Positions 385 to 18,381 of a stretch of DNA of 19,619 nt are shown here, piece by piece. The notes beneath the pieces were generated by a model. It was not told the DNA's origin. It was given only the letters and a program-made list of their open reading frames with translations, and searched no databases. The stretch is from Planctomycetales bacterium (lineage in GTDB: Bacteria > 4484-113). The translations under genes were made by a program, and so were the position numbers. Each line of letters opens with the position of its first letter. The first letter of the stretch is position 1. The DNA lies in NCBI GenBank assembly GCA_037445915.1, contig JBBIJQ010000035.1, positions 1 to 19,619 on the forward strand. Reading direction: 5' to 3'.

Positions 385-1449
385 ATGGCGCGTGAGCAGT
401 TAGAACGCATTAGGGGCTTTGCATTTCCGGCGAAGTACTGGGAACCGCTGGCCGAACAAGGCGGGCGAGTGCGCGTCCAGTGCCTCCTTTGCCCAAGGGA
501 ATGCGTTATCTCTGAAGGCGCGCTGGGCTTTTGCGGGGTGCGCGGGGCGCTGGACGGGAAGCTGCGCAGCTTCATCTACGGCCGCCCCAGCTCCATTGCG
601 GTTGACCCGGTGGAGAAGAAGCCGCTTTACCACTTCCACCCCGGAAGCCTTTGCCTTTCGCTGGGGACAATAGGCTGCAACTTCCACTGCGAACACTGCC
701 AGAACTGCGGCATCTCCATTGCGCGCGCAGACGATGCGGGCGTGGCGATGCTATCGCGCAAGGCTGTTACGCCTGAAAACCTGGCGAAGATGTGCAAAGA
801 GCAAGGCGCTGGCGGCATCGCCTTCACATACAACGAGCCGGGCATTTGGGTTGAGTTTATCCTGGATGTGTTTTCCTACTTTAAGGAACACACCGGCTTT
901 TACACTGCGCTGGTTACCAACGGCTTCATCAACGCCGCGCCGCTGGAAGGCCTGCTCGCGCTGACGGGCGCATACCGCGTTGACTTGAAGTCGGTCGTGC
1001 CGCAGCGCCTTATGCGGATGGCAGCGTGGGACAAGCCGGAAAAGGTGCTGGAGAGCATTGCGCTGGCGGTGAAGCGCGGCGCGCATGTTGAGGTCGTGAC
1101 CAATGTCGTCACCGGCTGGAACGACTCGGAAGAAGAGCTTACGGAAATGGCGCGGCTGCTAGCGGATATCGCGCCGCCGGACACCCCGTGGCACTTCACG
1201 CGCTACTTTCCGCGCCACCATTACGCCCAGCCTCCTACGGCGATGGCGAAGCTTGATGAGGCTGCAGCCATCGCGCGCGCGCAGGGCTTCCAGTTCGTTT
1301 ACCTTGGCAATGTTGAGGGCGGCTGCGACACCACTTGCCCAAGCTGCGGGAACGTGCTCATCAGGCGCAGTGGTTATGAAGCTCAGGCGCTTATTAAAGA
1401 ACCGCGCTGCCCAAAGTGCGGCAGCGCGGTAAAGTCGCTAGTTTTATAA
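385..1449 (+). CDS. amrS: AmmeMemoRadiSam-system radical SAM enzyme (PFL-activase-like)
   Basis: N-terminal CLLCPREC...GFCGVR, the VDPVEKKPLYHFHPG signature, radical SAM CxxxCxxC (GCNFHCEHCQN), AFTYNEP, and C-terminal YLGNV...TTCPSCG...CPKCG are all typical of AmrS. Confidence 0.92.
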   Translation: MAREQLERIRGFAFPAKYWEPLAEQGGRVRVQCLLCPRECVISEGALGFCGVRGALDGKLRSFIYGRPSSIAVDPVEKKPLYHFHPGSLCLSLGTIGCNFHCEHCQNCGISIARADDAGVAMLSRKAVTPENLAKMCKEQGAGGIAFTYNEPGIWVEFILDVFSYFKEHTGFYTALVTNGFINAAPLEGLLALTGAYRVDLKSVVPQRLMRMAAWDKPEKVLESIALAVKRGAHVEVVTNVVTGWNDSEEELTEMARLLADIAPPDTPWHFTRYFPRHHYAQPPTAMAKLDEAAAIARAQGFQFVYLGNVEGGCDTTCPSCGNVLIRRSGYEAQALIKEPRCPKCGSAVKSLVL

Positions 1450-1459
1450 AGCTCGCAGC

Positions 1460-2545
1460 TTAGATGTAGAATTCCAGAGTCTCCTCTGGATGGTGGCCGA
1501 TGCGAACCTCAAGTTCCATGAAGCGGTCACGGCGAATCAGGCCGAAGACCATAATCTGGTCTTTCTTGGCGCCATAGACGATTTTCTCAAGCTGGCCGAT
1601 GCTTTTGAGGAGTGCGCCGTCAACCTTTACAACGAAGTCCTGGTAGCGCAAGCCGGCCTCATACGCGGGGCTTCCTTCCCAAACATCGTAGATGAGCATT
1701 CCCACGTCCCAATACTCGTCCGGAAGGTTCATGTACATCTTAAGGTCGTCTGTAACCTCACGGATGCCGCCCTGGGCGCTGAAGGAGCCTGAATAGGGCA
1801 TAACACCAAGCCAGGGGCGGAATGCCGGCTCGCGGGTAGATATTATCTGGTCACTAATGCGCTTCACAAGCGACGCCGGCATGAAGAAGTTTGTGTTCTG
1901 CATCCCCAGCGCGCGGCCGCCGCCAAACACGGCTTGGATGCCGATGACTTCGGAGTTGGCATTAAAGAGCGGGCTTCCCTCGTTGCCGGAGTTGATGACT
2001 ACGTCACTCTGTATCATATCGGGGACGAGCTGGCCGGAGCGAAGGCGCACGGTGCGGAGGGCGGAGACAATTCCGTATGAAACGGTATGGCCGTAGCCGC
2101 CTGCGGTGCCTACAACGACGACGGAGTCGCCCTGGCGGACCGGAGCTTTGGTAGCAAGCTTGGCGGGAGTCAGGTCTTTTGGCGGCTTCTTGAGTTTGAT
2201 AACGCCCAGCCCGTAGCCTTCGTCCTCCACTACGATTTCCGCAGGGAACTTCCGGCCGTCGGCAAGAGTGACTTCTAATTCCTGCGCATCAGTAAGCGCG
2301 CTGATATCGGTGAGGATATAGCCGCTCTTGTTGAGGATAAGGCCGGTTTTGTAACTCTGGACGATGCGCTGCTGGCGCGAGGTCAGCGAAACCGCGGCGA
2401 GCGAGAGGCTCACCGCCTCAATGGTCACCACGCTTTGCTTCGCCTGTTCCGCGACCTTAACGGCCACGAATTCGGCGCGCGCAGGCAAACAGACAGCCAA
2501 GGCTGCAAGCGCTAACACTGTGATAGAAGTCCACTTCAAGCGCAT
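1460..2545 (-). CDS. Exported HtrA/DegQ-fold trypsin-like domain plus PDZ protein, catalytically dead (pseudo-protease 2)
   Basis: Start placed at ATG 2545 (AGGAGA at 2551-2556) rather than GTG 2563. Signal peptide ends ...LPARA. HtrA scaffold present (GYILT, VTLADGRKF, TVSYGIVSA, IQSDVVIN, PWLG, GSPAYEAGL). Triad replaced: TNxH to TDIS, DLA to GLG, GNSGG to GNEGS. Confidence 0.88.
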   Translation of the reverse strand: MRLKWTSITVLALAALAVCLPARAEFVAVKVAEQAKQSVVTIEAVSLSLAAVSLTSRQQRIVQSYKTGLILNKSGYILTDISALTDAQELEVTLADGRKFPAEIVVEDEGYGLGVIKLKKPPKDLTPAKLATKAPVRQGDSVVVVGTAGGYGHTVSYGIVSALRTVRLRSGQLVPDMIQSDVVINSGNEGSPLFNANSEVIGIQAVFGGGRALGMQNTNFFMPASLVKRISDQIISTREPAFRPWLGVMPYSGSFSAQGGIREVTDDLKMYMNLPDEYWDVGMLIYDVWEGSPAYEAGLRYQDFVVKVDGALLKSIGQLEKIVYGAKKDQIMVFGLIRRDRFMELEVRIGHHPEETLEFYI

Positions 2546-2609
2546 AGCGTTCTCCTGTTTCACTCCGCCAGCCCGCGCGGGCTTAGCGGAGATTCTAACG
2601 TCCGAAGCC

Positions 2610-2804
2610 TTAAACCGAGAAGTTGATTACGTATCTCGGTTTCGGAACTGAATAAACCTTGACGGTAAAGATGCGGTTGCCGGGGCGCTTCACGTCAAAT
2701 ACGTATTCCTGGCCGATTTCGCCAAGAAGAACGTCGGAGCGGAAGTCTTCCGGGCGCGGGGGCGCCATCTCGTTGACGGTCAACAGCCGGTCGCCCTTGC
2801 GCAA
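2610..2804 (-). pseudogene. Out-of-frame C-terminal half of the PDZ domain of the active HtrA (continuation of 2780..3784)
   Basis: LRKGDRLLTVNEM...EIGQEYVFDVKRPGNRIFTVKV is the part of a PDZ domain that normally follows SPAxxAG. The upstream ORF breaks exactly at DSPAA (junction 2804/2805). Confidence 0.85.
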
Positions 2805-3784
2805 GCAGCAGGGGAATCGGGCTCTACATCAAAAACCCACAAGCCTTCCGGCCGCAAGCGCTCGCGAAACTCAACATAGCTTTCCCCGTTGCGGATGTTG
2901 GGCGGGAATATGCAATGCATACCGAGCCAAGGGATGTCCTGGCGCTTGTGCTCAAGCACTTCCACGACGAAGTTCTTGGGGAAGTTAATGGGAACAGCGG
3001 CGTTGCTTTGCTGCGAAAGTATCCAAGCGCCGCCCCAAGTGTTTATGCCGATGACTTCGCCGTGACGGTTGAAAAGCGGGCCGCCGGAGTTACCGCCGTT
3101 AATGGGGGTTTGAATGTTGAAGATATAGGGGAGGTTCATAGCGTAGCTAAGGCCGAACTGCCCGCTTTCGCTGTAGCGGTTGCGGTAGTTCCATGCAACC
3201 TGAAAGGATAAGTCGGTGTCGCGGCCCATGACGACGCGCATAGTCGCGGTTTGGCGCAGGCCCCAGAACTCCATCGGGTCGCTGCGGTCAATGTTCACGC
3301 CTTCGTCCGCGCCGGGCGAACCCATGGCCAACGCCAGGTCGCCGGGCTGGACCAAGTTGGAGTCGCCAAGTGTTACCGGAAACAGCTTGGCCGGGTCGGG
3401 ATCGTCAAGCACGAGCAGGGCGCAGTCGTAGTAAGGCGCAGCTGCGACCAGAGAAGCGCGCGCGCTGCTGCCGTCCCAGAAAATAATCTGGCAGACCGAC
3501 GCCTTGCCGGCGACGTGGGTGTTGGTGAGGATATGCCCCTGCTTGTCAATGACAAAGCCTGAGCCCAGCGACTGCAACTCTGCGGCAAACAGCGAAGTCA
3601 CGTCAATAGGGTGGACAACGACAACCCCACGGTGGACTTTCTCCACGAGGTCGGGCACGTTGATGGGGTTCTCGCGCAGGATGCGCTGGGTATCCCTGGG
3701 GGTAATCTCCGGCGCAGCGAACGCGCCGGTGAGTGCGGCGGATAGCGCCGCCAAAACGACAATCATAAACACCGTTGCTCTCAT
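2780..3784 (-). CDS. htrA: HtrA/DegQ-family serine protease with intact triad; frameshifted in the PDZ domain (full gene 2610..3784)
   Basis: ATG 3784 with GGAGGT about 10 nt upstream; signal peptide MRATVFMIVVLAALSAALTGAFA. Motifs LGSGFVID, ILTNTHV (His), YDCALL (Asp), INGGNSGGPL (Ser) and PDZ start PWLG...DSPAA. Confidence 0.9.
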   Translation of the reverse strand: MRATVFMIVVLAALSAALTGAFAAPEITPRDTQRILRENPINVPDLVEKVHRGVVVVHPIDVTSLFAAELQSLGSGFVIDKQGHILTNTHVAGKASVCQIIFWDGSSARASLVAAAPYYDCALLVLDDPDPAKLFPVTLGDSNLVQPGDLALAMGSPGADEGVNIDRSDPMEFWGLRQTATMRVVMGRDTDLSFQVAWNYRNRYSESGQFGLSYAMNLPYIFNIQTPINGGNSGGPLFNRHGEVIGINTWGGAWILSQQSNAAVPINFPKNFVVEVLEHKRQDIPWLGMHCIFPPNIRNGESYVEFRERLRPEGLWVFDVEPDSPAACARATGC

Positions 3785-3847
3785 TTTGTTACATACCTCC
3801 ACACTGCGCCACAGGGCTTGCCTGCGGCCCGAAACGGTTAGCGGCAC

Positions 3848-4963
3848 TTATTCGTCGTCTTCCTCTGGATACTCCAGTATTTGGACGACGGTCTCGTAAA
3901 TGTCGCCCCCCGTTGCCTTCGGGTCGGTGCTAATGCCCGGCGTAAACCGCCAGTAGCTGATAGTTACCAGATCGTTTATTTCAATGCGCCGGAAAAATGC
4001 GCTGTAATCAAACTGATACTTAATCTTGTTGCCGTCAAGCGAGACTATAAGGTCTCCCGCTTTCATGCCTGCGAGGTCGGCCGGGCTTCCCGGGTCAACA
4101 TAGGTAATGAACATTCCCGTCTCAATGCGGGCGGGTATTTCATTGAGCAGCCGGATCTGGTCGGTAAGGAGGATTGTTTCCGCGCCAAACCAGGGGCGCT
4201 TGGCCTTGCCCGCGATGATGCGGTCGGCAACCCTGACTACGTCGTTTATGGGCACCGCCAGGTTAATGTTGCTTTGGTTAAAGTCCAACACGGTGTCATA
4301 GACGATACCGACGACTTCCCCGTTCACGTTGGAGAGCGGGCCGCCCATCATCGCAAGCTGGTATGCCGCGTCAAACTGGATGTACTGCTCTGTCGGCTCT
4401 TCAACGCCCGGCAGCTCCTTGCGGATTGCGGAAATAACGCCCACGGTGCTGCTGTAGTCCTGGCCGCGTTCGCCGAAGCCTGTGATGCAGATTGGCTCGC
4501 CAAGCTTCAGGTGATCCGAGTTTGCCAGCGGGGCAGGAACCGGCTCGTACCTGTAGCCCCAGTTGACCTCAAGCACCGCCGTCTTGAAGACATCGTCGGT
4601 TCCGACTTTCTTAGCGGAAAACGACCTTCCGTCGGCGGTGATTACCCGGATATACTCCGCATGGGAGAGGATGAATGGGGTGGTAATCACGTATTTTGGA
4701 TCCTTGTAGATGAACCCGCAACCGTACAGGCCGTAGAGCGGCCGCGCACCGCGCATGTAGCTCCAGATTGCGTATTCAGTGTCGTTGCGCGGCTTGTCAA
4801 ACCGCGTCTCAATGAATACGACCGACGGCTTAAGCGACATTGCTGCTTGGTCGGAAGCGTAGTTAAGCTCCCAGCCCGGAGCAACCTGCGCGTTGGCGGT
4901 GTAGGCTATCGCCAGCGCAAACAGAAGCGAGCAAAGCCACGCCGCTTTGGAAAGTGGCCTCAT
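3848..4963 (-). CDS. Exported HtrA/DegQ-fold trypsin-like domain plus PDZ protein, catalytically dead (pseudo-protease 1)
   Basis: SD GAGGTGA; start is 18 nt after the proS stop. Signal peptide ends ...TANA. Scaffold GCGFI, TADGRSF, GVISA, YIQFDAA, GGPL, GEVVGI, PWFG, GSPADLAGMKAGD. Triad replaced: TNxH to TTPF, DLA to KTA, GNSGG to AMMGG. Confidence 0.88.
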   Translation of the reverse strand: MRPLSKAAWLCSLLFALAIAYTANAQVAPGWELNYASDQAAMSLKPSVVFIETRFDKPRNDTEYAIWSYMRGARPLYGLYGCGFIYKDPKYVITTPFILSHAEYIRVITADGRSFSAKKVGTDDVFKTAVLEVNWGYRYEPVPAPLANSDHLKLGEPICITGFGERGQDYSSTVGVISAIRKELPGVEEPTEQYIQFDAAYQLAMMGGPLSNVNGEVVGIVYDTVLDFNQSNINLAVPINDVVRVADRIIAGKAKRPWFGAETILLTDQIRLLNEIPARIETGMFITYVDPGSPADLAGMKAGDLIVSLDGNKIKYQFDYSAFFRRIEINDLVTISYWRFTPGISTDPKATGGDIYETVVQILEYPEEDDE

Positions 4964-4981: not shown

Positions 4982-6451
4982 CTAGTATGACTGGCCCCAA
5001 TAAGCAAGGTACCGGGCGGGCCGGCCAGAAAGGATACAGAATACCTTATCAGATACAGCTTCGTTTTTCAACACGCGGACAGTCGCCGCGGTCGCTTCCT
5101 TGATTGCAGCCTCGGTTTCACGGGTGCCGTCCCAGGGCGCGACGGCGAATCCCTTGCCGGAAACAGCCTCTTTGAACTCGTCAAAGGTGTGCGCTTCAAT
5201 GAGCCGCGACGCCTGCGCCTGCTGCGTTTTCACGCGCAGCCGCATCTGGATATCCTCCATCATCGCGGCAAGCCCATTCATGTCAAATGTTCCGGCCGCC
5301 AAGTCAAACGCCAGCGGCTTCTTGCTGCGGTCGTCACGGGCCACTGCCGTCGCCTGGGAATTGGCGAGATCTTTAGGCCCTACTTCTAGACGCACGGGGA
5401 CACCCTTTAGTTCCCATTTAGAGAACTTGAATCCTGGGGTCGTCGTATCGTCGGCGTCCAGCTTCACGCGCATCGGCTCGCCGAAAGCCGAACCCGCCTT
5501 GATTATCTCCTCAAGCTTCGCAGCCGCCTCAAGCACCTGCGCCTTGGTTTCGTTCTGGAATATCGGCGTGATGACGGCCTGCACAGGCGCGAGCTTCGGC
5601 GGGAGAATGATGCCGTTGTCGTCGCCGTGTTGCATTATCAGGCCGCCGATGATGCGGTGGCTCACGCCCCAGCTCGTCGTCCAGACGTATTTCTCAATGT
5701 TGTCTTCGTCAAGGAACTTGATATCAAACGCCTTGGCGAAATTCTGGCCGAGGAAATGGCTGGTGCCTGATTGCAGCGCTTTGCCGTCGGGCATCATCGC
5801 CTCAATCGCGTAGGTTGAGACCGCGCCGGCGAACTTCTCCGAGTCGCTCTTCATCCCCGCGAGCACTGCCATAGAAAGGTCGTCGGTCGCAAACTCGCGG
5901 TAAACGTCAAGGATGCGCAGCGTTTCCTCCTGTGCCTCTTTCTCGTATCGGTGCGCGGTGTGCCCCTCCTGCCACAGGAACTCCAGCGTGCGCAGGAACG
6001 GGCGCGTCGCCTTCTCCCAGCGCACGACGTTCGCCCACTGGTTTTGCAGGATAGGCAGGTCGCGGTAGGAGTTGATCCACTTCGCCCACATAGTCCCGAT
6101 GATGACCTCGCTCGTGGGGCGCACTGCCAGCGGCTCGGCAAGCTTCTCGCCGCCGCCGATGGTGACCCATGCGACTTCGGGCGAGAAGCCCTCCACGTGC
6201 TGCGCCTCTTTCGTGAGCAGGCTCTTGGGGATGAACAGGGGGTAGTAAACGTTTTGCGCGCCGGTCTCGGCTATGCGGCGGTCAAGCAAAAACTTGATGC
6301 GCTCCCAAATCGCGTATCCGTATTCGCGGTAAACCATGCACCCGCGCACGGGCGCATAGTCCGCGAGTTCGCCTTTGAGAATCACGTCGGTGTACCAGTC
6401 CGACAGGTTCTCGCTGCGCTTGGCGATTTGTTTTGATTCAATCTTAGCCAT
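4982..6451 (-). CDS. proS: Proline--tRNA ligase, archaeal/eukaryotic (Thermus) type
   Basis: WYTDVI...DYAPVRG, HVEGFSPEV, RPTSE, YRDLP, VRWE..TRPFLRTLEFLWQEGHT, LQSGTSHFLGQNF, TSWGVS, WELKGVP and terminal Tyr; no INS editing domain. Start placed at ATG 6451. Confidence 0.97.
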   Translation of the reverse strand: MAKIESKQIAKRSENLSDWYTDVILKGELADYAPVRGCMVYREYGYAIWERIKFLLDRRIAETGAQNVYYPLFIPKSLLTKEAQHVEGFSPEVAWVTIGGGEKLAEPLAVRPTSEVIIGTMWAKWINSYRDLPILQNQWANVVRWEKATRPFLRTLEFLWQEGHTAHRYEKEAQEETLRILDVYREFATDDLSMAVLAGMKSDSEKFAGAVSTYAIEAMMPDGKALQSGTSHFLGQNFAKAFDIKFLDEDNIEKYVWTTSWGVSHRIIGGLIMQHGDDNGIILPPKLAPVQAVITPIFQNETKAQVLEAAAKLEEIIKAGSAFGEPMRVKLDADDTTTPGFKFSKWELKGVPVRLEVGPKDLANSQATAVARDDRSKKPLAFDLAAGTFDMNGLAAMMEDIQMRLRVKTQQAQASRLIEAHTFDEFKEAVSGKGFAVAPWDGTRETEAAIKEATAATVRVLKNEAVSDKVFCILSGRPARYLAYWGQSY

Positions 6452-6471
6452 AGCCGCCACCGGAAACAAAA

Positions 6472-6681: not shown

Positions 6682-6692
6682 TCCCGGTGCGA

Positions 6693-8264
6693 ATGCGGGC
6701 ATACCTTCTTTGCGTGGTTCTCATCTTCACGGCGCTTATCGCCACGCCGCCCGCATACGCCGACGACGCCGCGCCGCCCGCCTCCCCGCCCATTGAAACC
6801 GCCGCTGCCCCCGCGCAGGAGCAGCCCGCAGACGATGCGGTCACGGTGCAGACCGGCGAAGCCAATGACTACATTGAAGCCGACAGCGGCACGTATCTTA
6901 CCGGCGATAAGCTGGAGCTTAAAGGTAACGTACTCCTGCACACCGAGAGCGCCTTCCCCGGCGCGGTCGTGGAGATACGCGCGGACGAGGCGGTGTGGGA
7001 CGAAAAGCTTGACGTGTTCACAGTCCCCGGCGCGACAAGGATAAGCGTCCCCTCATACAAGCTTGACATCATCGGCCAAAACCTGCGCGCCGACCTGGCC
7101 GCGCATACCGGCTCCATTGAAAGCGTCAGCGGCACGATGCGCGTTAACCCGAAGATGTTTGCGGACGCCAACGGGATGGTAAACCGCCGCTACGTGCGCT
7201 TCACGACTGCCGACCCGATGGTGAGCTTCATAAGCGAGGGCATGTCGTTTGTGCAAGGCGAAAACGGCGCATTCGTGGCGACCTTCAAGCAGGCGCGCAT
7301 AGCCCCCGCCGATGCTGCCAGCGCAGATTTCCGGTTTACAGTGCAGGAGATGGTTTATATCCCCGGCGAGCAAGTCATCGTCCGCAATGCGCGGCTGCAG
7401 GCGAGCGGCGTGACCATCGGCTACGTCCCGCGCTACCGTTATAGGCTGAAGAGCAGCGACCGCATCCTGCGCGGCACATTTCCCACGCCGGGATACGACG
7501 AGGACGACGGCTTCTTTCTCCAGCAGTCTGAATACCTGCGCTACGGCGACTTGTCCGTTGACCTGAACAGCGAGTATTTCGTCCAGGACCAGCGTTACCT
7601 GCCAGACCTCCAGATATTCACTGAGCCTACTGAGAACTCCAAGCTCGGCGTGCAGTTAGGGCGAGACCGCACGCGCGACCTCTACCGCCGCCGCATAAGC
7701 CGTAAGACTTCGTATAACTTCTACTACACGCAAGACATGGACTTTCACGCCGATTTCCTGCGCAGCGCGTCCTTCGGCGTTAGCTACGCCAAGCGCGGCC
7801 AGGACCTGCCTAAGGTGACTTCGCGCAGCTTCTCAACCTTCGCCAAGGCAGATACGCCCGCCTACGACCTTGGCGGTGGCGTGAAAGCGCTGGGCGGCAT
7901 AGGCGCGTATTACTGGAAGTATGAATATGGCGATGCGGATTTTCTCGCGCTGCACTCTTTCGTGCGCCTGGCGCGCGAATCACCGTGGGGCATTGACTAT
8001 GTGCAGTTTGAGCATGCCGACAAGTTCGGCGGCAGCCCCTTCCGCTTTGACGACCAGTTCACGGAAAACAAGCTCATCGCCAACAAGAACTTCCAGCTAT
8101 TCCCGCATTACACGGGCCGAGTGACCGCCGCCTACAACTACGACCTGAATAACTTTGACGAGCTGACGGTTGGCTTGAGCCGCGAGCTGCGGGCATATTA
8201 CATCGGCATGAACTACAACTTCGCGCGCGCGGCAGCGGGCGTGGAGTTTGCTCTGAAGTTCTAA
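6693..8264 (+). CDS. LptD/OstA-like outer-membrane beta-barrel protein (short LPS-assembly-type)
   Basis: Signal peptide ending AYA; OstA-like N-terminus (IEAD, LKGNV, IRADEAVW); LptD-like core (YIPGEQVIVRNARL...IGYVP, PTPGYDEDDGFF); aromatic-rich amphipathic strands; C-terminal Phe (GVEFALKF). lptB and an MsbA-like gene are nearby. Start could be GTG 6687. Confidence 0.7.
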   Translation: MRAYLLCVVLIFTALIATPPAYADDAAPPASPPIETAAAPAQEQPADDAVTVQTGEANDYIEADSGTYLTGDKLELKGNVLLHTESAFPGAVVEIRADEAVWDEKLDVFTVPGATRISVPSYKLDIIGQNLRADLAAHTGSIESVSGTMRVNPKMFADANGMVNRRYVRFTTADPMVSFISEGMSFVQGENGAFVATFKQARIAPADAASADFRFTVQEMVYIPGEQVIVRNARLQASGVTIGYVPRYRYRLKSSDRILRGTFPTPGYDEDDGFFLQQSEYLRYGDLSVDLNSEYFVQDQRYLPDLQIFTEPTENSKLGVQLGRDRTRDLYRRRISRKTSYNFYYTQDMDFHADFLRSASFGVSYAKRGQDLPKVTSRSFSTFAKADTPAYDLGGGVKALGGIGAYYWKYEYGDADFLALHSFVRLARESPWGIDYVQFEHADKFGGSPFRFDDQFTENKLIANKNFQLFPHYTGRVTAAYNYDLNNFDELTVGLSRELRAYYIGMNYNFARAAAGVEFALKF

Positions 8265-13483: not shown

Positions 13484-13662
13484 GGGGAATGTTCCAAGCA
13501 CTCCAACAACGCCTGCACTTCATCCCGAAGCTTGCGCATCTTCTCCGCAACCTCCGGCGGAAGCTCAGGGGGAAGCTCGCCTTCCCACGCGCCGTGCAGT
13601 TCCTTCAGCGCGCTGACAATCTCTTCGCGGCTGAAATCTTTTGGCTGTTCAGGTTCGCTCAT
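13480..13662 (-). CDS. Small acidic helical protein (60 aa), unknown function
   Basis: ATG 13662 overlaps the asnS TGA (ATGA coupling). Sequence MSEPEQPKDFSREEIVSALKELHGAWEGELPPELPPEVAEKMRKLRDEVQALLECLEHSP looks like a helix-Pro linker-helix protein. Confidence 0.6.
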   Translation of the reverse strand: MSEPEQPKDFSREEIVSALKELHGAWEGELPPELPPEVAEKMRKLRDEVQALLECLEHSP

Positions 13663-14984
13663 GGCGAGAGGCGGTGCAGCATCCTCGGGAACGCGATGGT
13701 CTCGCGGATGTGCTGCACGCCGCAAAGCCATCCTAGCGTGCGCTCAAGGCCGATGCCGAAGCCCGAATGCGGCACGCTGCCGTATTTGCGCAGATCAAAA
13801 TACCAGCTAAACGCCTCCTCGGGCAGCCCGTGTTCCTGCACGCGCAGGCGCAGCGTCTCCAGGTCGTCCTCGCGCTGGCTGCCGCCGATGATTTCGCCGA
13901 CTCCCTCAGGCGCAAGCAGGTCCGAGCCGAGCACCGTCTCAGGGTCTTTCGGGTCGCGCTTCATGTAAAACGCCTTTATCTGCGCCGGAAAGTTGGTGAT
14001 GAACACCGGCAAGTCCGACTGCCCCGCAAGGAATGTTTCCTCCGGCGCGCCGAAGTCTTCACCGAAATCAAAGCGCGCCTCGCGCCCGGGCATATTTTCG
14101 TTGATGATTTTCACGGCGTCGCGGTAGTGGATGCGCGGGAAGCACCCGCCCTTGGCGCACGCCTCCACGATGTTCGCAAGCGGCGTTGTGTCGCGCTCAA
14201 GCGTGACAAGCTCGCCGGCGCAGTTCGCGAGCACGCGCCTAATCGTGTCAAGTATCATGTGCTCTTGCAGGCGCATGTTGTCTTCGTGCGTGAAATACGC
14301 GGCCTCGGCTTCCAGCATCCAGAACTCCAGCAAATGCCGCCGCGTCTTGCTCTTTTCTGCGCGGAAGGTTGGGCCGAAGCAATACACGCGCCCCAGCGCC
14401 ATCGCGTTCGCCTCGTTGTAGAGCTGGCCGCTTTGCGAGAGGTATGCCTTGTCGCCGTGGTAGTCAACTTCAAAAAGCGTGGTCGTGCCTTCAACCGCGT
14501 TGGGCGTGAAGATGGGCGTGTCCACGCGGATGAACCCGCGCTCGTAGAAGAAGTCAGCCCACGCCTTCTCAACCTCGTTGCGCACGCGCATTATCGCCGC
14601 CTGCTTGCGCGAGCGAAGCCAAAGGTGGCGGTTGTCCATCAGGAACTCTACGCCGTGGTCTTTCTTGGCGATTGGGTAGTCTTCAACAATTTGCAGCGCG
14701 TTCACGGCGCTGACCTGCATCTCCACGCCGCCTGGCGCGCGCGGCTCAAGGCGAAGTTCGCCCGTGATTTCAAGCGACGATTCTATGCCGAGCTTCGCGC
14801 ACTGCTCCATCGCCTCGGGCTGAAGGCTGCCGCCGAAGGCGACGCACTGCATTTCGCCGCTGCCGTCGCGCACGATGAGGAAGAAGATGTTCTTCCCGCT
14901 GCGTATGTTGCGCAGCCAGCCGCGCAGCCTCACGGTTTCGCCGGCGTGCTCCTTCGCGTCACATATTCGTATCGTCTCAATCAT
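13659..14984 (-). CDS. asnS: Asparagine--tRNA ligase
   Basis: OB fold (LRGW, RDGSG), YPIAKKDHG.EFLMDNRHLWLR, EGTTTLF, YLSQSGQLY, FGPTFRAEKSKTRRHL.EFWMLE, GEIIGGSQRE, WYFDLRKYGSVPHSGFGIGLER. Confidence 0.97.
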   Translation of the reverse strand: MIETIRICDAKEHAGETVRLRGWLRNIRSGKNIFFLIVRDGSGEMQCVAFGGSLQPEAMEQCAKLGIESSLEITGELRLEPRAPGGVEMQVSAVNALQIVEDYPIAKKDHGVEFLMDNRHLWLRSRKQAAIMRVRNEVEKAWADFFYERGFIRVDTPIFTPNAVEGTTTLFEVDYHGDKAYLSQSGQLYNEANAMALGRVYCFGPTFRAEKSKTRRHLLEFWMLEAEAAYFTHEDNMRLQEHMILDTIRRVLANCAGELVTLERDTTPLANIVEACAKGGCFPRIHYRDAVKIINENMPGREARFDFGEDFGAPEETFLAGQSDLPVFITNFPAQIKAFYMKRDPKDPETVLGSDLLAPEGVGEIIGGSQREDDLETLRLRVQEHGLPEEAFSWYFDLRKYGSVPHSGFGIGLERTLGWLCGVQHIRETIAFPRMLHRLSP

Positions 14985-15043
14985 ATTGCGCCCCTTGGCA
15001 CGCCTATTCTAACCCCTATCAGCGCGCGTGTGAAATCGCGCTT

Positions 15044-15189
15044 TGGAGTCTGGGCTCTGCTGAAGGGCGGGGACCTGTGCCCCGCCGCTCTTCTCCGAAA
15101 ACAAGACGGCGGCCCACGGGTGGCCGCCCTACAACCAGAATCCCATAGCCGGGCGAAAGTTCACCCGCCTTTGGAGGGACACGGCCTAC
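15044..15189. repeat. Nested REP/REPIN cluster (left-truncated) with a 20-nt mini-insertion
   Basis: tggagtctgggctctg linker; tgaagggcggggacctgtgccccgcc from 15061; inverted gacggcggcccacgggtggccgccctaca (15105-15133); inverted GTAG REP 15147-15189, interrupted at 15160-15179. Confidence 0.75.
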
Positions 15190-15289
15190 AGCTTTGGATT
15201 GTCTTGTTATATTTCCCCCTACACATCGCTAGAATCTATATGGGCGAGAGCTAACCCTCCGCCTACTTCGCGCCGGAGCACCCGCATAT

Positions 15290-16792
15290 ATGCCCGATTC
15301 CCCGCAAGCCGCAAGCGCCGGACTGCACGCGCCCGAGCTGCAAAAACTCTGGAACGGCAGCGTCGCAGCAAGCCTCACCAAGCCTGAATACTTCGCGCTG
15401 CTTGGCTACCGCCCACACGCAGGCCAGCGCCGCATCCACAACTCCAGCCGACGCTTCACCATCGCCGTGTGCGGCCGCCGCTGGGGCAAGACGCTCGCAG
15501 CCGCGCGCGAGGCAGGCTTTGCGGCGCTGAAGCCAGGCGCGCGCATCTTCGTCGTCGCGCCGTACCACGCCCTGTGCAGCCGCGTGTTTGAGCAGGTGTG
15601 GAACGACCTTGTCGTGGCGTTGCGCATGCCCGTCGCCGCAAAGAGCCGCAGTGACATGATGATTGAGCTGGCATGGGGCGCGCGCATTGAGGGCAAGACT
15701 GCCGAGCGCCCGGACGGCCTGGTCGGCGAAGGGCTTGACCTCGTGGTCTTTGACGAAGCAGCGAAGGCAAGGGCGGGCGTGTGGGAGCGCTACCTTGCGC
15801 CGTCGCTCATGGACAAGCGCGGCCGCGCGCTGTTCATAACCACGCCCGAGGGCATGAATTGGCTATACTCGCTGTTTATGCAGGGCAAGGACAGCGGCGA
15901 AAGCAACTGGCTTTGCTTCAACGCGCCGTCGCAGTCAAACCCGCACCTTCCCCGCGCCGAACTTAAGCTCATTACGCGCAATATGTCGCGCTTTCATAAG
16001 GCGCAGGAAATCGGCGCGGAGTTCACTCGCTGCGCCAACCTGGTCTATCCCGCGTTTTCCCACGCCGCGCACGTGCGCCCGCAAAGCTACGACCCGCGCC
16101 TGCCGCTTTACCGCGCCATTGACTTCGGCTACACAAACCCGTTTGCTTGCCTCACGCTGCAAGTTGCGCCGGGCGACGAGGTGCGCGTGCTTGACGAGAT
16201 ATACCAGCGCGGCGAGACGGTTCACGAAAATGCCCAGCGCATGCAGCAGTCGCTTGAGCCATACTTCGCGCGCTTCCGCGACTACTGGCTTCACGGCGGC
16301 CACATGCGCCAGCCTGTCTCTCCATCAACCAATAGCCAGTCACTTGCAACCATCCTCACCCATCCCCTCACCGGCGCTCCGCGCTTCCCGCAAAGCGTGG
16401 ATGAATTCGCGCAGTGCGTAATGCATTTTTGCGACCCCGCAGGCGCGGGCGAGCGTGCGCACCTGCGTAGCCTGGGGCTCATCGTGCAGGCGCGCCCTTC
16501 GCCGTTGTCCTACGGCATTGAGCTTGTCCGCAGCGCGCTGGAGGGAGACGGCGACGCCCCCAAGCTTTTCGTTGACCCACGCTGCGTGAACCTCATCCGC
16601 GAATTCGGAAGCTACCGCTACGCCGATTCAGGAGACTCATCCTTTTCCTCCTCCGCTTACCCCTTATCCGCCTGCGCCGAAGCTTCGGCGGACAAGTCCC
16701 TTACCTCTTACCCCTCTCTGGCTGAAGCTCCCCTCAAGGAGAACGACCACGCCCTTGACGCGCTGCGCTACTTCATGGGGAATATGTTTTGA
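15290..16792 (+). CDS. Phage terminase large subunit (Terminase_6-like ATPase plus RNase H-like nuclease), solitary
   Basis: Q motif YRPHAGQ, Walker A GRRWGKT, VVAP, Walker B LVVFDEAA, motif III FITTPEG, NPHL, nuclease acidic motifs AIDFG, DPAG and DHALDALRY. Confidence 0.9.
   Translation: MPDSPQAASAGLHAPELQKLWNGSVAASLTKPEYFALLGYRPHAGQRRIHNSSRRFTIAVCGRRWGKTLAAAREAGFAALKPGARIFVVAPYHALCSRVFEQVWNDLVVALRMPVAAKSRSDMMIELAWGARIEGKTAERPDGLVGEGLDLVVFDEAAKARAGVWERYLAPSLMDKRGRALFITTPEGMNWLYSLFMQGKDSGESNWLCFNAPSQSNPHLPRAELKLITRNMSRFHKAQEIGAEFTRCANLVYPAFSHAAHVRPQSYDPRLPLYRAIDFGYTNPFACLTLQVAPGDEVRVLDEIYQRGETVHENAQRMQQSLEPYFARFRDYWLHGGHMRQPVSPSTNSQSLATILTHPLTGAPRFPQSVDEFAQCVMHFCDPAGAGERAHLRSLGLIVQARPSPLSYGIELVRSALEGDGDAPKLFVDPRCVNLIREFGSYRYADSGDSSFSSSAYPLSACAEASADKSLTSYPSLAEAPLKENDHALDALRYFMGNMF
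16656..16713 (+). repeat. Heptamer array CTTA(C/T)C(C/T) x4 interrupted by a 30-nt palindromic mini-element, inside the terminase ORF
   Basis: cttaccc ctta[tccgcctgcgccgaagcttcggcggacaag]tcc cttacct cttaccc. Confidence 0.75.
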
Positions 16793-17082: not shown

Positions 17083-18381
17083 ATGGGGCGGAGAGTAATT
17101 ATTGCGCTGGCAGTCCTCACAATCGCAACGGCGGGATTCGCTGCGCTTGCGCTCATAAATGGAGCGACGGCTGAATACTACGGCGGCGGCGCGCCGGCGT
17201 CACCTGCGCAGCCCTCGGCGCCGGTGGCGTTGGACATGGAAGAAGCAGGCAGCGCGTTCGCTGCGGCGTCCAATGCGCTGGGGCTTGGCCTCCTGCGCGA
17301 GATGCGCAAGGGCGAAAAGGGCAACCTCGTGTTTTCGCCGCTGTCGGTGCAGCTTGCGCTTGGCATGACGCTAAACGGCGCGGATGGCGTGACGGCAGCA
17401 CAGATGCACGATGCGATGGCGCTTGGCGCGATGGACCTTGGCGATGCGAACATGTCTGCGCGCTGGCTCATAAACTCGCTGGCGGGCGCGGATGAAAGCG
17501 TGGAGATGTCGCTTGCCGACTCGCTTTGGCTTGAGCGCGGGCTTGCGCTAAATCCCGATTTCGTTGCTACATGCCGCGACTTCTACAGCGCGGAGGTTAC
17601 CGAGACCAACCTCACGAGCCGCTATGCGCTCAAGCAAATGGACGACTGGGTCAAGGCGAAGACCAACGGCCGCATAAAGTCCATCATTGACCCGCCGGTT
17701 GACGATGCGACCGCGCTCATCCTCCTCAACGCAGTGTATTTCAAAGCCGCATGGGACAAGCCATTTGACAAGGAAGACACGCGCGATGACGACTTCACGC
17801 TAGCAAGCGGCGAAACGATGCCAGTGAAGATGATGCGCCAACACGCAGGCTGGGAGTATCAGGAAAACGAGGCCTTCCAAGCGGCGCGGTTGAAATACGG
17901 CGATGAGGACAGGTTTGGAATGTGCGTGTTCCTGCCGCGTGAAGGCGTGGGGCTTGACACGATGCTTGATGCGCTCGCGAAGCGGGATTGGCAGGAGTGG
18001 ATAGAAGAGTTCTACTGGATGGAAGGCACAGTCGGCCTGCCTCGCTTCAAGGTGGAATTCGGCGCGAAGCTAAACGACCCGCTTAAGGCGCTGGGGATGC
18101 GCGATGCGTTCATGCCCGACAAGGCGCGGTTCACGAAAATGGTTAACGCACTTGAGCCGCTTTGCATAGGGCTTGTGATGCACAAGGCGTTCATTGAAGT
18201 GAACGAGGCGGGGACGGAAGCAGCCGCTGCAACAGCGGTACACGGCTGGGCGACAGCGGCGCCGGGCGAGGAGCCTAAGACCTTCTCGCTTATTGCGCGC
18301 CGCCCGTTCATGTATGCCATCACCGAAGCCGATACCGGCGCAATCATATTCCTCGGTGTCGTTGGGCGGCCGGAGGAATAA
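17083..18381 (+). CDS. Secreted serpin (serine protease inhibitor, MEROPS I4)
   Basis: SD AAGGAG; N-terminal signal/TM segment; NLVFSPLS, WVKAKTNGRI, LLNAVYFKAAW, LPRFK, hinge EVNEAGTEAAAAT, RPFMYAI and FLG. Confidence 0.95.
   Translation: MGRRVIIALAVLTIATAGFAALALINGATAEYYGGGAPASPAQPSAPVALDMEEAGSAFAAASNALGLGLLREMRKGEKGNLVFSPLSVQLALGMTLNGADGVTAAQMHDAMALGAMDLGDANMSARWLINSLAGADESVEMSLADSLWLERGLALNPDFVATCRDFYSAEVTETNLTSRYALKQMDDWVKAKTNGRIKSIIDPPVDDATALILLNAVYFKAAWDKPFDKEDTRDDDFTLASGETMPVKMMRQHAGWEYQENEAFQAARLKYGDEDRFGMCVFLPREGVGLDTMLDALAKRDWQEWIEEFYWMEGTVGLPRFKVEFGAKLNDPLKALGMRDAFMPDKARFTKMVNALEPLCIGLVMHKAFIEVNEAGTEAAAATAVHGWATAAPGEEPKTFSLIARRPFMYAITEADTGAIIFLGVVGRPEE

Follow-up and report, generated by a model that had tools for sequence, protein, structure and literature searches.

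Three HtrA paralogues at one locus

This work deals with three adjacent genes of the HtrA family in a Planctomycetales bacterium. They lie in the window, as we call the whole stretch of DNA that was analysed, which comprises 19,619 nt of contig JBBIJQ010000035.1 (C35 of a 1.79-Mb genome assembled in 120 contigs and 90% complete). HtrA proteases are known from textbooks as homotrimeric, allosterically switched quality-control proteases. The three genes, named A, B and C in the order of their transcription, are all on the minus strand, and only the middle one, B, codes for a protein with a complete catalytic triad. We report that a whole uncultured lineage keeps, under strong selection, a live HtrA paralogue next to two dead ones that differ from each other, and we think that the dead copies are probably non-cutting partners of the live B, with which they would be in contact.

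The features of the locus are collected in Table 1. The initial annotation of this DNA had described three adjacent and co-oriented paralogues, with strong Shine-Dalgarno sites at both dead copies, and this layout was recovered with open reading frames (ORFs) at 3848-4963, 2780-3847 and 1460-2563. The likely start codons are ATG 4963 for A, ATG 3784 rather than GTG 3847 for B, and ATG 2545 rather than GTG 2563 for C, and Shine-Dalgarno-like motifs (GAGG, GGAGG or AGGAG) are found 6-11 nt 5' of these three ATGs. The distance from the stop codon of proS, the gene for prolyl-tRNA synthetase (ProRS), to the ATG of A is 18 nt, the intergenic gaps within proS-A-B-C are short, and no terminator-like site was detected on the minus strand between these four genes. 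Probably, proS-A-B-C is a co-transcribed module. When read by eye, the N-termini of A, B and C show a basic stretch followed by a hydrophobic one and by A-x-A, as in putative signal peptides. The possibility that C is a lipoprotein, for which the window offers a Cys (...LAVC...), was rejected, since this Cys is not conserved in the alignment.

Table 1. Positions of the trio, of its triad residues and of adjoining features in the window
Feature	Position	Strand	Remarks
proS, prolyl-tRNA synthetase	4982..6469	-	Pfam tRNA-synt_2b, ProRS-C_1, HGTP_anticodon; directly upstream of A
Gene A, secreted HtrA-like pseudo-protease (predicted), 371 aa	3848..4963	-	Trypsin-like domain, one PDZ, acidic tail
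Residues of A at the triad positions	4673-4675; 4583-4585; 4346-4348	-	Phe97 at His; Lys127 at Asp; Met206 at Ser (QLAMMGGPL)
Gene B as assembled, catalytic HtrA paralogue	2780..3847	-	PDZ cut by frameshift
Triad residues of B	3515-3517; 3425-3427; 3086-3088	-	His111; Asp141; Ser254 (NGGNSGGPL); numbered from GTG 3847
10-bp deletion site in B	2804..2805	-	Relative to G001 and public-run contigs
Out-of-frame 3' remnant of B	2610..2801	-	Rest of PDZ and C-terminus ...NFSV, then stop
Gene C, secreted HtrA-like pseudo-protease (predicted), 367 aa from GTG 2563	1460..2563	-	Trypsin-like domain, one PDZ
Residues of C at the triad positions	2300-2302; 2210-2212; 1979-1981	-	Ser88 at His; Gly118 at Asp; Glu195 at Ser (NSGNEGSPL)
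Last four codons of C, E-F-Y-I	1463..1474	-	C-terminal end
Terminator-like hairpin, 11 pairs, 9 G-C	1401..1430	-	Downstream of C; consensus match only
Radical-SAM gene	385-1449		Convergent, downstream of C

The assignment of the triad positions is based on HMMER alignments to the solved HhoA, DegQ and DegP, in which the residues listed in Table 1 fall on the catalytic His, Asp and Ser. Every codon coordinate that had been given earlier is exact, and so is the statement that B is the only gene with H/D/S, with F/K/M in A and S/G/E in C. The Pfam family Trypsin_2 (PF13365) is matched by the three proteins, with E = 1.1e-15 for A, 7.7e-24 for B and 1.3e-23 for C, and A and C also match PDZ_6, PDZ_2 and PDZ. 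The B ORF as assembled has no Pfam PDZ match, owing to a frameshift that is treated below; the intact B of a genome of the same genus (G001) aligns with PDZ1 of DegP, and the remnant at 2610-2801 of the window codes for the same residues. Thus, of the signal peptide, trypsin-like domain and PDZ domain previously ascribed to each protein, the trypsin-like domain stands for all three and the PDZ for A and C, whereas that of B is broken here.

Searches with phmmer against DegP, DegQ and HhoA chains gave E = 1e-24 to 1e-33. With AlphaFold2 (AF2) models of B and C, the best Foldseek matches were DegQ, Deg1, DegP, DegS and AlgW (E = 1e-24 to 1e-27), the model of C having the HtrA fold with a predicted local distance difference test score (pLDDT) of 82. 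The best NCBIfam matches of A, B and C are likewise models of DegP, HhoA, HtrA, DegS and DegQ, all of them far under the curated cut-offs: TIGR02037 (degP_htrA_DO, cut-off 416.2 bits) gives 140.7 bits with A, 120.8 with B and 193.8 with C, the DegS models give 82-124 bits for cut-offs of 408-423, and none of the DegP, DegQ, DegS, HhoA and HtrA equivalog models reaches its cut-off with any of the three proteins. By descent and predicted fold A and C are members of the HtrA family, yet they are predicted not to be peptidases.

As assembled, B is not whole. In the alignment with G001 the window is without 10 bases between 2805 and 2804; the frame of B shifts after ...PDSPAA and reaches a stop at 2780, and the remaining PDZ and C-terminus are coded in another frame. 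Near-identical contigs covering this stretch come from four public runs; those of X1 and X4 have 10 additional bases precisely at this site, by which the frame is restored. The contigs of X2 and X3 end before the site, and the deletion is reproduced by none of the public-run contigs, those of X1 and X4 being the ones that span it. The out-of-frame remnant of 72 residues has no Pfam match; compared with G001, 56 of 63 residues are identical and the ratio of nonsynonymous to synonymous substitution rates (dN/dS) is 0.108. The insertion in the X1 and X4 contigs, together with the identity and the dN/dS of the remnant, indicates that the deletion either comes from an error of assembly or is a variant of very recent origin, and that B is probably intact in nature. 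In this point the initial annotation does not hold for the assembly: it credited the middle gene with a PDZ domain like the other two, and the interrupted ORF is that of B, not those of the dead A and C.

Conservation, triad loss and selection in related genomes

With C as query, orthologue-level C-type matches were obtained in 22 of 23 relatives of the same class, the one without a match being G003, which is 77% complete. The loci of 20 relatives were fetched; G003 was left out for lack of a C-type match, and G016 and G020 because their matches were on short contigs only. Genes of the A, B and C types are present in 20/20 of these loci, and in 19 of them they follow the order A-B-C on a single strand. 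The sole non-collinear trio is that of G004 (L019/L039), in which the B-C pair is inverted relative to proS and A, which stay adjacent. In the 20 related loci with DNA upstream of A (L033-L052), proS is always directly upstream of it; L053 begins inside A and was excluded from this count. A and C are never duplicated in the fetched loci. One of the related genomes is a complete chromosome of 4.1 Mb (CP060262.1).

In a joint alignment, the full H-D-S triad is kept in 26/26 B rows. The A family has His in none of its 21 rows (F in 16, D in three, I in one and R in one), Asp in four and Ser in one, and the sole A row with Ser has Asp at the His position. In the C family, His is also absent from all 21 rows, with nine different residues in its place (S/A/E/G/N/D/Y/T/R); the Asp position is occupied by Asp in four rows and by Gly in 17, and the Ser position never by Ser but by Glu (15), Gln (three), Thr (two) or Val (one). 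Since different residues have taken the place of the former His within A and within C, no substitute catalytic chemistry is conserved. A and C have to be read as bona fide pseudo-proteases. In public records, the A orthologue of the complete genome goes by 'serine protease' or by 'trypsin-like peptidase domain-containing protein'; as an annotation of A, serine protease would be wrong, because an A protein with such residues is predicted to be incapable of this chemistry.

Selection was estimated by the Nei-Gojobori method on 14 genome pairs. The 11 pairs within a genus (dS 0.12-1.43) gave dN/dS values (omega) that span 0.03-0.23 in A, 0.03-0.30 in B and 0.02-0.27 in C, the comparison of the window with G001 giving 0.081, 0.073 and 0.088, respectively. 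Omega was 0.15-0.17 in one cross-genus pair, and in two pairs dS was saturated for at least one gene. Purifying selection on A and C is as strong as on B. Moreover, the ORFs of A and C are unbroken in 21/21 genomes examined, one C being cut by a contig end, and 53 columns of A and 32 of C are invariant across the class. Because the trio is conserved, the pattern of triad loss is fixed and dN/dS is low, it is well supported that the dead copies are maintained and not decaying. The initial annotation had held this view and had proposed two ways of checking it. Both bear it out: in relatives the trio (20/20), its order (19/20) and the pattern of loss are preserved, and the dN/dS of A and C is equal to that of B (about 0.02-0.3), with neutral evolution not seen in these pairs.

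The age of the trio was approached with a quick IQ-TREE tree of 105 rows. Each family falls on one side of a branch, with values of the Shimodaira-Hasegawa-like approximate likelihood ratio test (SH-aLRT) of 99 for A (22 rows), 99 for B (26 rows) and 95 for C (22 rows), and the subclades of the three families run parallel. The window genome has two canonical HtrA genes with full triads elsewhere, on contigs C66 and C8, and the C66-type HtrA (22 rows) is likewise set off by a branch (SH-aLRT 99). We read the trio as vertically inherited and as older than the diversification of the lineage.

The A family is rare. A profile of it, compared with 1.84 billion representative proteins, found six full-length proteins at 354-606 bits and two N-terminal fragments, after which the scores fall to 189 bits and belong mostly to ordinary two-PDZ HtrAs; one protein at 189 bits, P0012, is A-like. 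Its contig, a distant metagenome contig of 4669 bp (L122), carries a dead (R/D/N), an active (H/D/S) and a dead (N/R/L) gene in the same order, the C-like one being cut by the contig end. In the tree, where the L122 rows sit on long branches, these genes are sisters of the A, B and C clades. The gene upstream of them (L122 66-1172, plus strand) resembles, as read from its translation, the C-terminal portion of a histidine kinase of the CheA type and not proS. As judged from the loci compared, the trio moves as a unit, independently of proS. The loci of other phyla that were touched by the A query (L054-L081) contain 28 HtrA ORFs in 27 of the 28 loci, all with a complete triad; no trio was seen in these 28 loci, and L079 is without an HtrA ORF.

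How the three proteins may act together

In our opinion, A, B and C most likely work as one hetero-oligomeric HtrA system in the cell envelope, a reading to which we give a probability of about 0.55. What the sequences show is that the triads were lost and that this loss is fixed, along with the synteny, the selection and how old the trio is, whereas physical contact and stoichiometry are what we infer. B would do the cutting, and A and C would supply non-catalytic surfaces, that is, their dead substrate clefts and their PDZ domains. Further surfaces might be provided by the long invariant LA-loop region of A and by the C-terminus of C, which is aromatic as in outer membrane proteins (OMPs). 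All of these would bind substrates or gate the activity of B. The particle could be either a mixed trimer or a stack of homotrimers as in Deg5/Deg8. A precedent is MamO, a pseudo-protease without which the proteolysis that depends on MamE does not proceed, although its own triad is dispensable (PMC4794232).

The elements that might make such contacts differ among the three proteins. In B of G001, a stretch of 60 residues (178-237) lies between Asp and Ser of the triad without aligning to DegP-like chains, in which about 21 residues occupy this place; the AF2 model of B gives a pLDDT <50 at residues 177-197 and a helix at 212-223. We take this stretch to be the LD/L3 region, which in the usual HtrA loop naming carries inter-subunit activation. 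The A proteins have a long and nearly invariant segment between their first two strands (ETRF..P..RGxRP..GL), and an acidic tail that is not conserved. The C-terminus of B is (N/D/E)-F-S-(V/I) in 25/25 intact orthologues, and NFSV in the remnant of the window. In C the last residue is Phe or Ile and the one before it is aromatic in 20/20 complete orthologues (EYF, YYF, EFF, FYI), and this end is kept even where a variable linker of about 20 to 30 residues is inserted. Among the structural matches there are PDB entries whose titles name DegS with the activating peptides YQF, YRF and DNRLGLVYQF, and AlgW with tri- and decapeptides, so that the end of C is similar to an HtrA PDZ ligand already known. 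A P-W-x-G loop, located where the PDZ domain starts, aligns with E-L-G-I of DegP, and is invariant in B and C and variable in A. For the PDZ-plus-tail parts of B (residues 298-413) and C (245-367) of G001, the predicted complex had an interaction prediction score from aligned errors (ipSAE) of 0.01 in two runs, a value that speaks neither for nor against contact.

Several results weigh against the joint action of the three proteins. The gene that is frameshifted in this assembly is the catalytic one. Rate covariation, calculated from residual distances after regressing out those of ProRS in the 13 of 21 genomes with all six proteins, is r = 0.13 between A and B (reached by 807 of 5000 permutations) and r = -0.04 between B and C (3068 of 5000). 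Between A and C it is r = 0.79, which none of the 5000 permutations reaches, and the dead pair appears tied to each other and not to B; the genomes are related, so the permutation test overstates and these values are exploratory. Two B genes, in the order A-B-B'-C, are present in 5/20 loci, namely L022 (G021), L023 (G010), L024 (G011), L028 (G014) and L030 (G017), and the tree suggests two independent origins of this tandem duplication, one in G021 and the other in genus g7. In L122, B ends in ...RETY and not in FSV. The tail of B is placed by the AF2 monomer at a pLDDT of about 90, which fits docking in its own chain as well as being offered to a neighbour. Besides, a conserved hydrophobic C-terminus, made of two aliphatic residues in 21/21 rows, is likewise found in the canonical C66-type HtrA of these genomes, and the idea that such ends are special to B and C was rejected on this ground. 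The motif in these rows (L098-L119) is ...AP-x-x-G-(A/V/I)-(I/V), and no conserved C-terminus was found in 19 rows of the C8-type canonical paralogue. For some HtrAs of this lineage, a conserved tail may be the general case.

The joint system can be specified further. A strict 1:1:1 A:B:C heterotrimer, in which the dead subunits signal to the site of B through the contacts of loop L3 with loop LD known in homotrimers, is a special case of it, so that its probability is contained in the value given above, and we regard it as doubtful. It would agree with three paralogue families for a fold that has the trimer as its basic unit, with the gene order fixed in 19/20 loci, and with the stretch 178-237 of B if this is the LD/L3 inter-subunit region, as the usual loop names would have it. 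Engineered heterotrimers of HtrA2 are described as being in use for work on inter-subunit crosstalk (10.1101/2021.10.04.462974). However, the four-gene arrangement in a quarter of the loci is a misfit with three genes for three subunits, the rates of B do not covary with those of A or C, and the one natural HtrA hetero-oligomer mentioned in a review, Deg5/Deg8, is described there as built out of homotrimers (PMC4877387). An even bolder version is an obligate three-gene HtrA machine, either a heterotrimer or an ordered hetero-oligomer, with a DegS-type regulation by substrate built into its subunits: the OMP-like aromatic end of C would dock in the PDZ of B, the FSV end of B would dock in the PDZ of C, and the long invariant LA-loop region of A would gate the active site of B. 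We think that this machine is unlikely; if it were true, this would be the first case of a bacterial HtrA whose dead regulatory subunits are dedicated and have genes of their own.

Alternatively, A and C may have jobs of their own, as non-catalytic envelope proteins (holdase chaperones or peptide sensors) that share an operon with B but not a particle, and that form homo-oligomers or an A-C complex. We see this as a possible account, taking both of its forms together, although not as the probable one. It is favoured by the covariation in rate of A with C and of neither with B, and by the L1 loop of C, which is nearly canonical (GNEGSPL), so that its peptide-binding cleft may survive. Proteolytically inactive HtrA variants, such as DegP S210A, retain chaperone activity, which also counts in its favour. 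New functions have been described or suggested for related proteins: MamO acquired metal binding (PMC4794232), and neo-functionalisation is suggested for the inactive Deg proteins of cyanobacteria (PMC4877387). On the other side, the three genes have been adjacent since before the lineage diversified, with the same order in 19/20 loci and in L122, which exceeds what co-regulation usually needs, and no gene of the trio is missing in any of the 20 loci. That A and C are still enzymes by means of non-canonical residues, such as the Glu of C at the nucleophile position, seems very improbable to us. Glu or Gln does stand at the former Ser in 18/21 C rows, but the other three have Thr or Val, the former His of C is replaced by nine residues and its former Asp by Gly in 17/21, and all three positions vary in A, so that neither family has a fixed potentially catalytic set. 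The probability that A and C are decaying pseudogenes, or that the pattern arose by chance, is close to nil: no point in favour was found, the only interrupted gene of the trio in the window being B, and against it stand the ORFs unbroken in 21/21 genomes, dN/dS of 0.02-0.27, the 53 and 32 invariant columns, and the fact that each family is one ancient clade.

The trio is a natural system in which to ask what a dead subunit does in this fold, whether it is a sensor, an adaptor, a holdase or a gate. So far, this question has been approached by means of engineered mixed trimers and of the special case of MamO.

Neighbouring genes and comparison with known systems

Other genes of the window lie farther from the trio. 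About 12 kb away there is a bacterial serpin of 432 aa (17083-18381, plus strand; Pfam Serpin, E = 8e-101), a serine-protease inhibitor that may or may not be connected with the trio. An ORF of 500 aa (15290-16792, plus strand) has a weak match to PF03237, the N-terminal domain of terminase large subunits (E = 3e-6), and no further phage-like gene was recognised near it. The 495-aa ORF at 13767-15254 (plus strand), without Pfam match, overlaps almost wholly with a class II aminoacyl-tRNA synthetase gene on the opposite strand (13659-14984; tRNA-synt_2, E = 3e-70), and is probably spurious. Another ORF, of 525 aa (6687-8264, plus strand) and also without Pfam match, aligns with its G001 counterpart (L033) in two pieces of 80% and 67% identity, which suggests a break or rearrangement in the window genome or in G001. 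No RNA genes were found in the window by Rfam at the gathering threshold or by ARAGORN.

A search of the full-text literature, which does not cover subscription journals, returned no description of a dead-active-dead HtrA operon, in agreement with the initial annotation, which knew of no bacterial HtrA with such an arrangement. The precedents named there were ClpP/ClpR and the inactive proteasome beta subunits, cases of a protease particle with dead paralogues among its subunits. They belong to ATP-dependent chambered ring proteases of unrelated folds, unlike the trio, and the pseudo-proteases of the HtrA family itself (MamO, DEG7 and the cyanobacterial Deg proteins) had been omitted.

DegS and AlgW are single-PDZ HtrAs that, according to the titles of their PDB entries, bind aromatic-x-Phe peptides, and C ends in a similar motif. 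DegS itself is anchored in the membrane as a homotrimer in which all three sites are live. Its activating peptide comes from misfolded substrates and not from a partner subunit, whereas the tail of C is only a candidate PDZ ligand.

A likeness is found in magnetotactic bacteria, where MamE/MamO and LimE/LimO pair an active HtrA-type protease with an HtrA-derived pseudo-protease (PMC4794232). As reported in that source, such dead copies arose after duplication, were retained, and did so independently in three taxa, and MamO must be present, though its triad is not required, for MamE-dependent proteolysis. MamO differs from the proteins described here in having a TauE transporter domain, a di-histidine metal site and a role in biomineralisation. 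In A and C, Pfam shows only Trypsin_2 and PDZ families and no TauE match, and against the MamO model NF040961 they score 25.4 and 43.5 bits for a cut-off of 800; by their model scores, A and C were rejected as members of the MamO and MamE families.

In the plant protease DEG7, trimerisation is described as proceeding through degenerated protease domains that are kept for protein-protein interaction (PMC3194040). DEG7 and the trio have in common the retention of a degenerated HtrA protease domain, but DEG7 carries its dead and its live domain on one polypeptide and is homotrimeric, whereas the trio consists of three genes, each with its own putative signal peptide and PDZ. Deg5/Deg8 of Arabidopsis is described as one complex of two HtrA paralogues at 1:1, built out of homotrimers (PMC4877387), and chains of Deg8 and Deg5 are among the structural and sequence matches of C. 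Unlike the trio, both are treated in that source as proteases, and they belong to the thylakoid lumen of a eukaryote, without an operon. Inactive Deg proteins have also been noted in Nostoc and Anabaena. Hence, HtrA-derived pseudo-proteases are already known, and what the present trio adds to them is two distinct dead paralogues flanking a live gene, in a lineage that, unlike that of MamO, has no link to magnetosomes.

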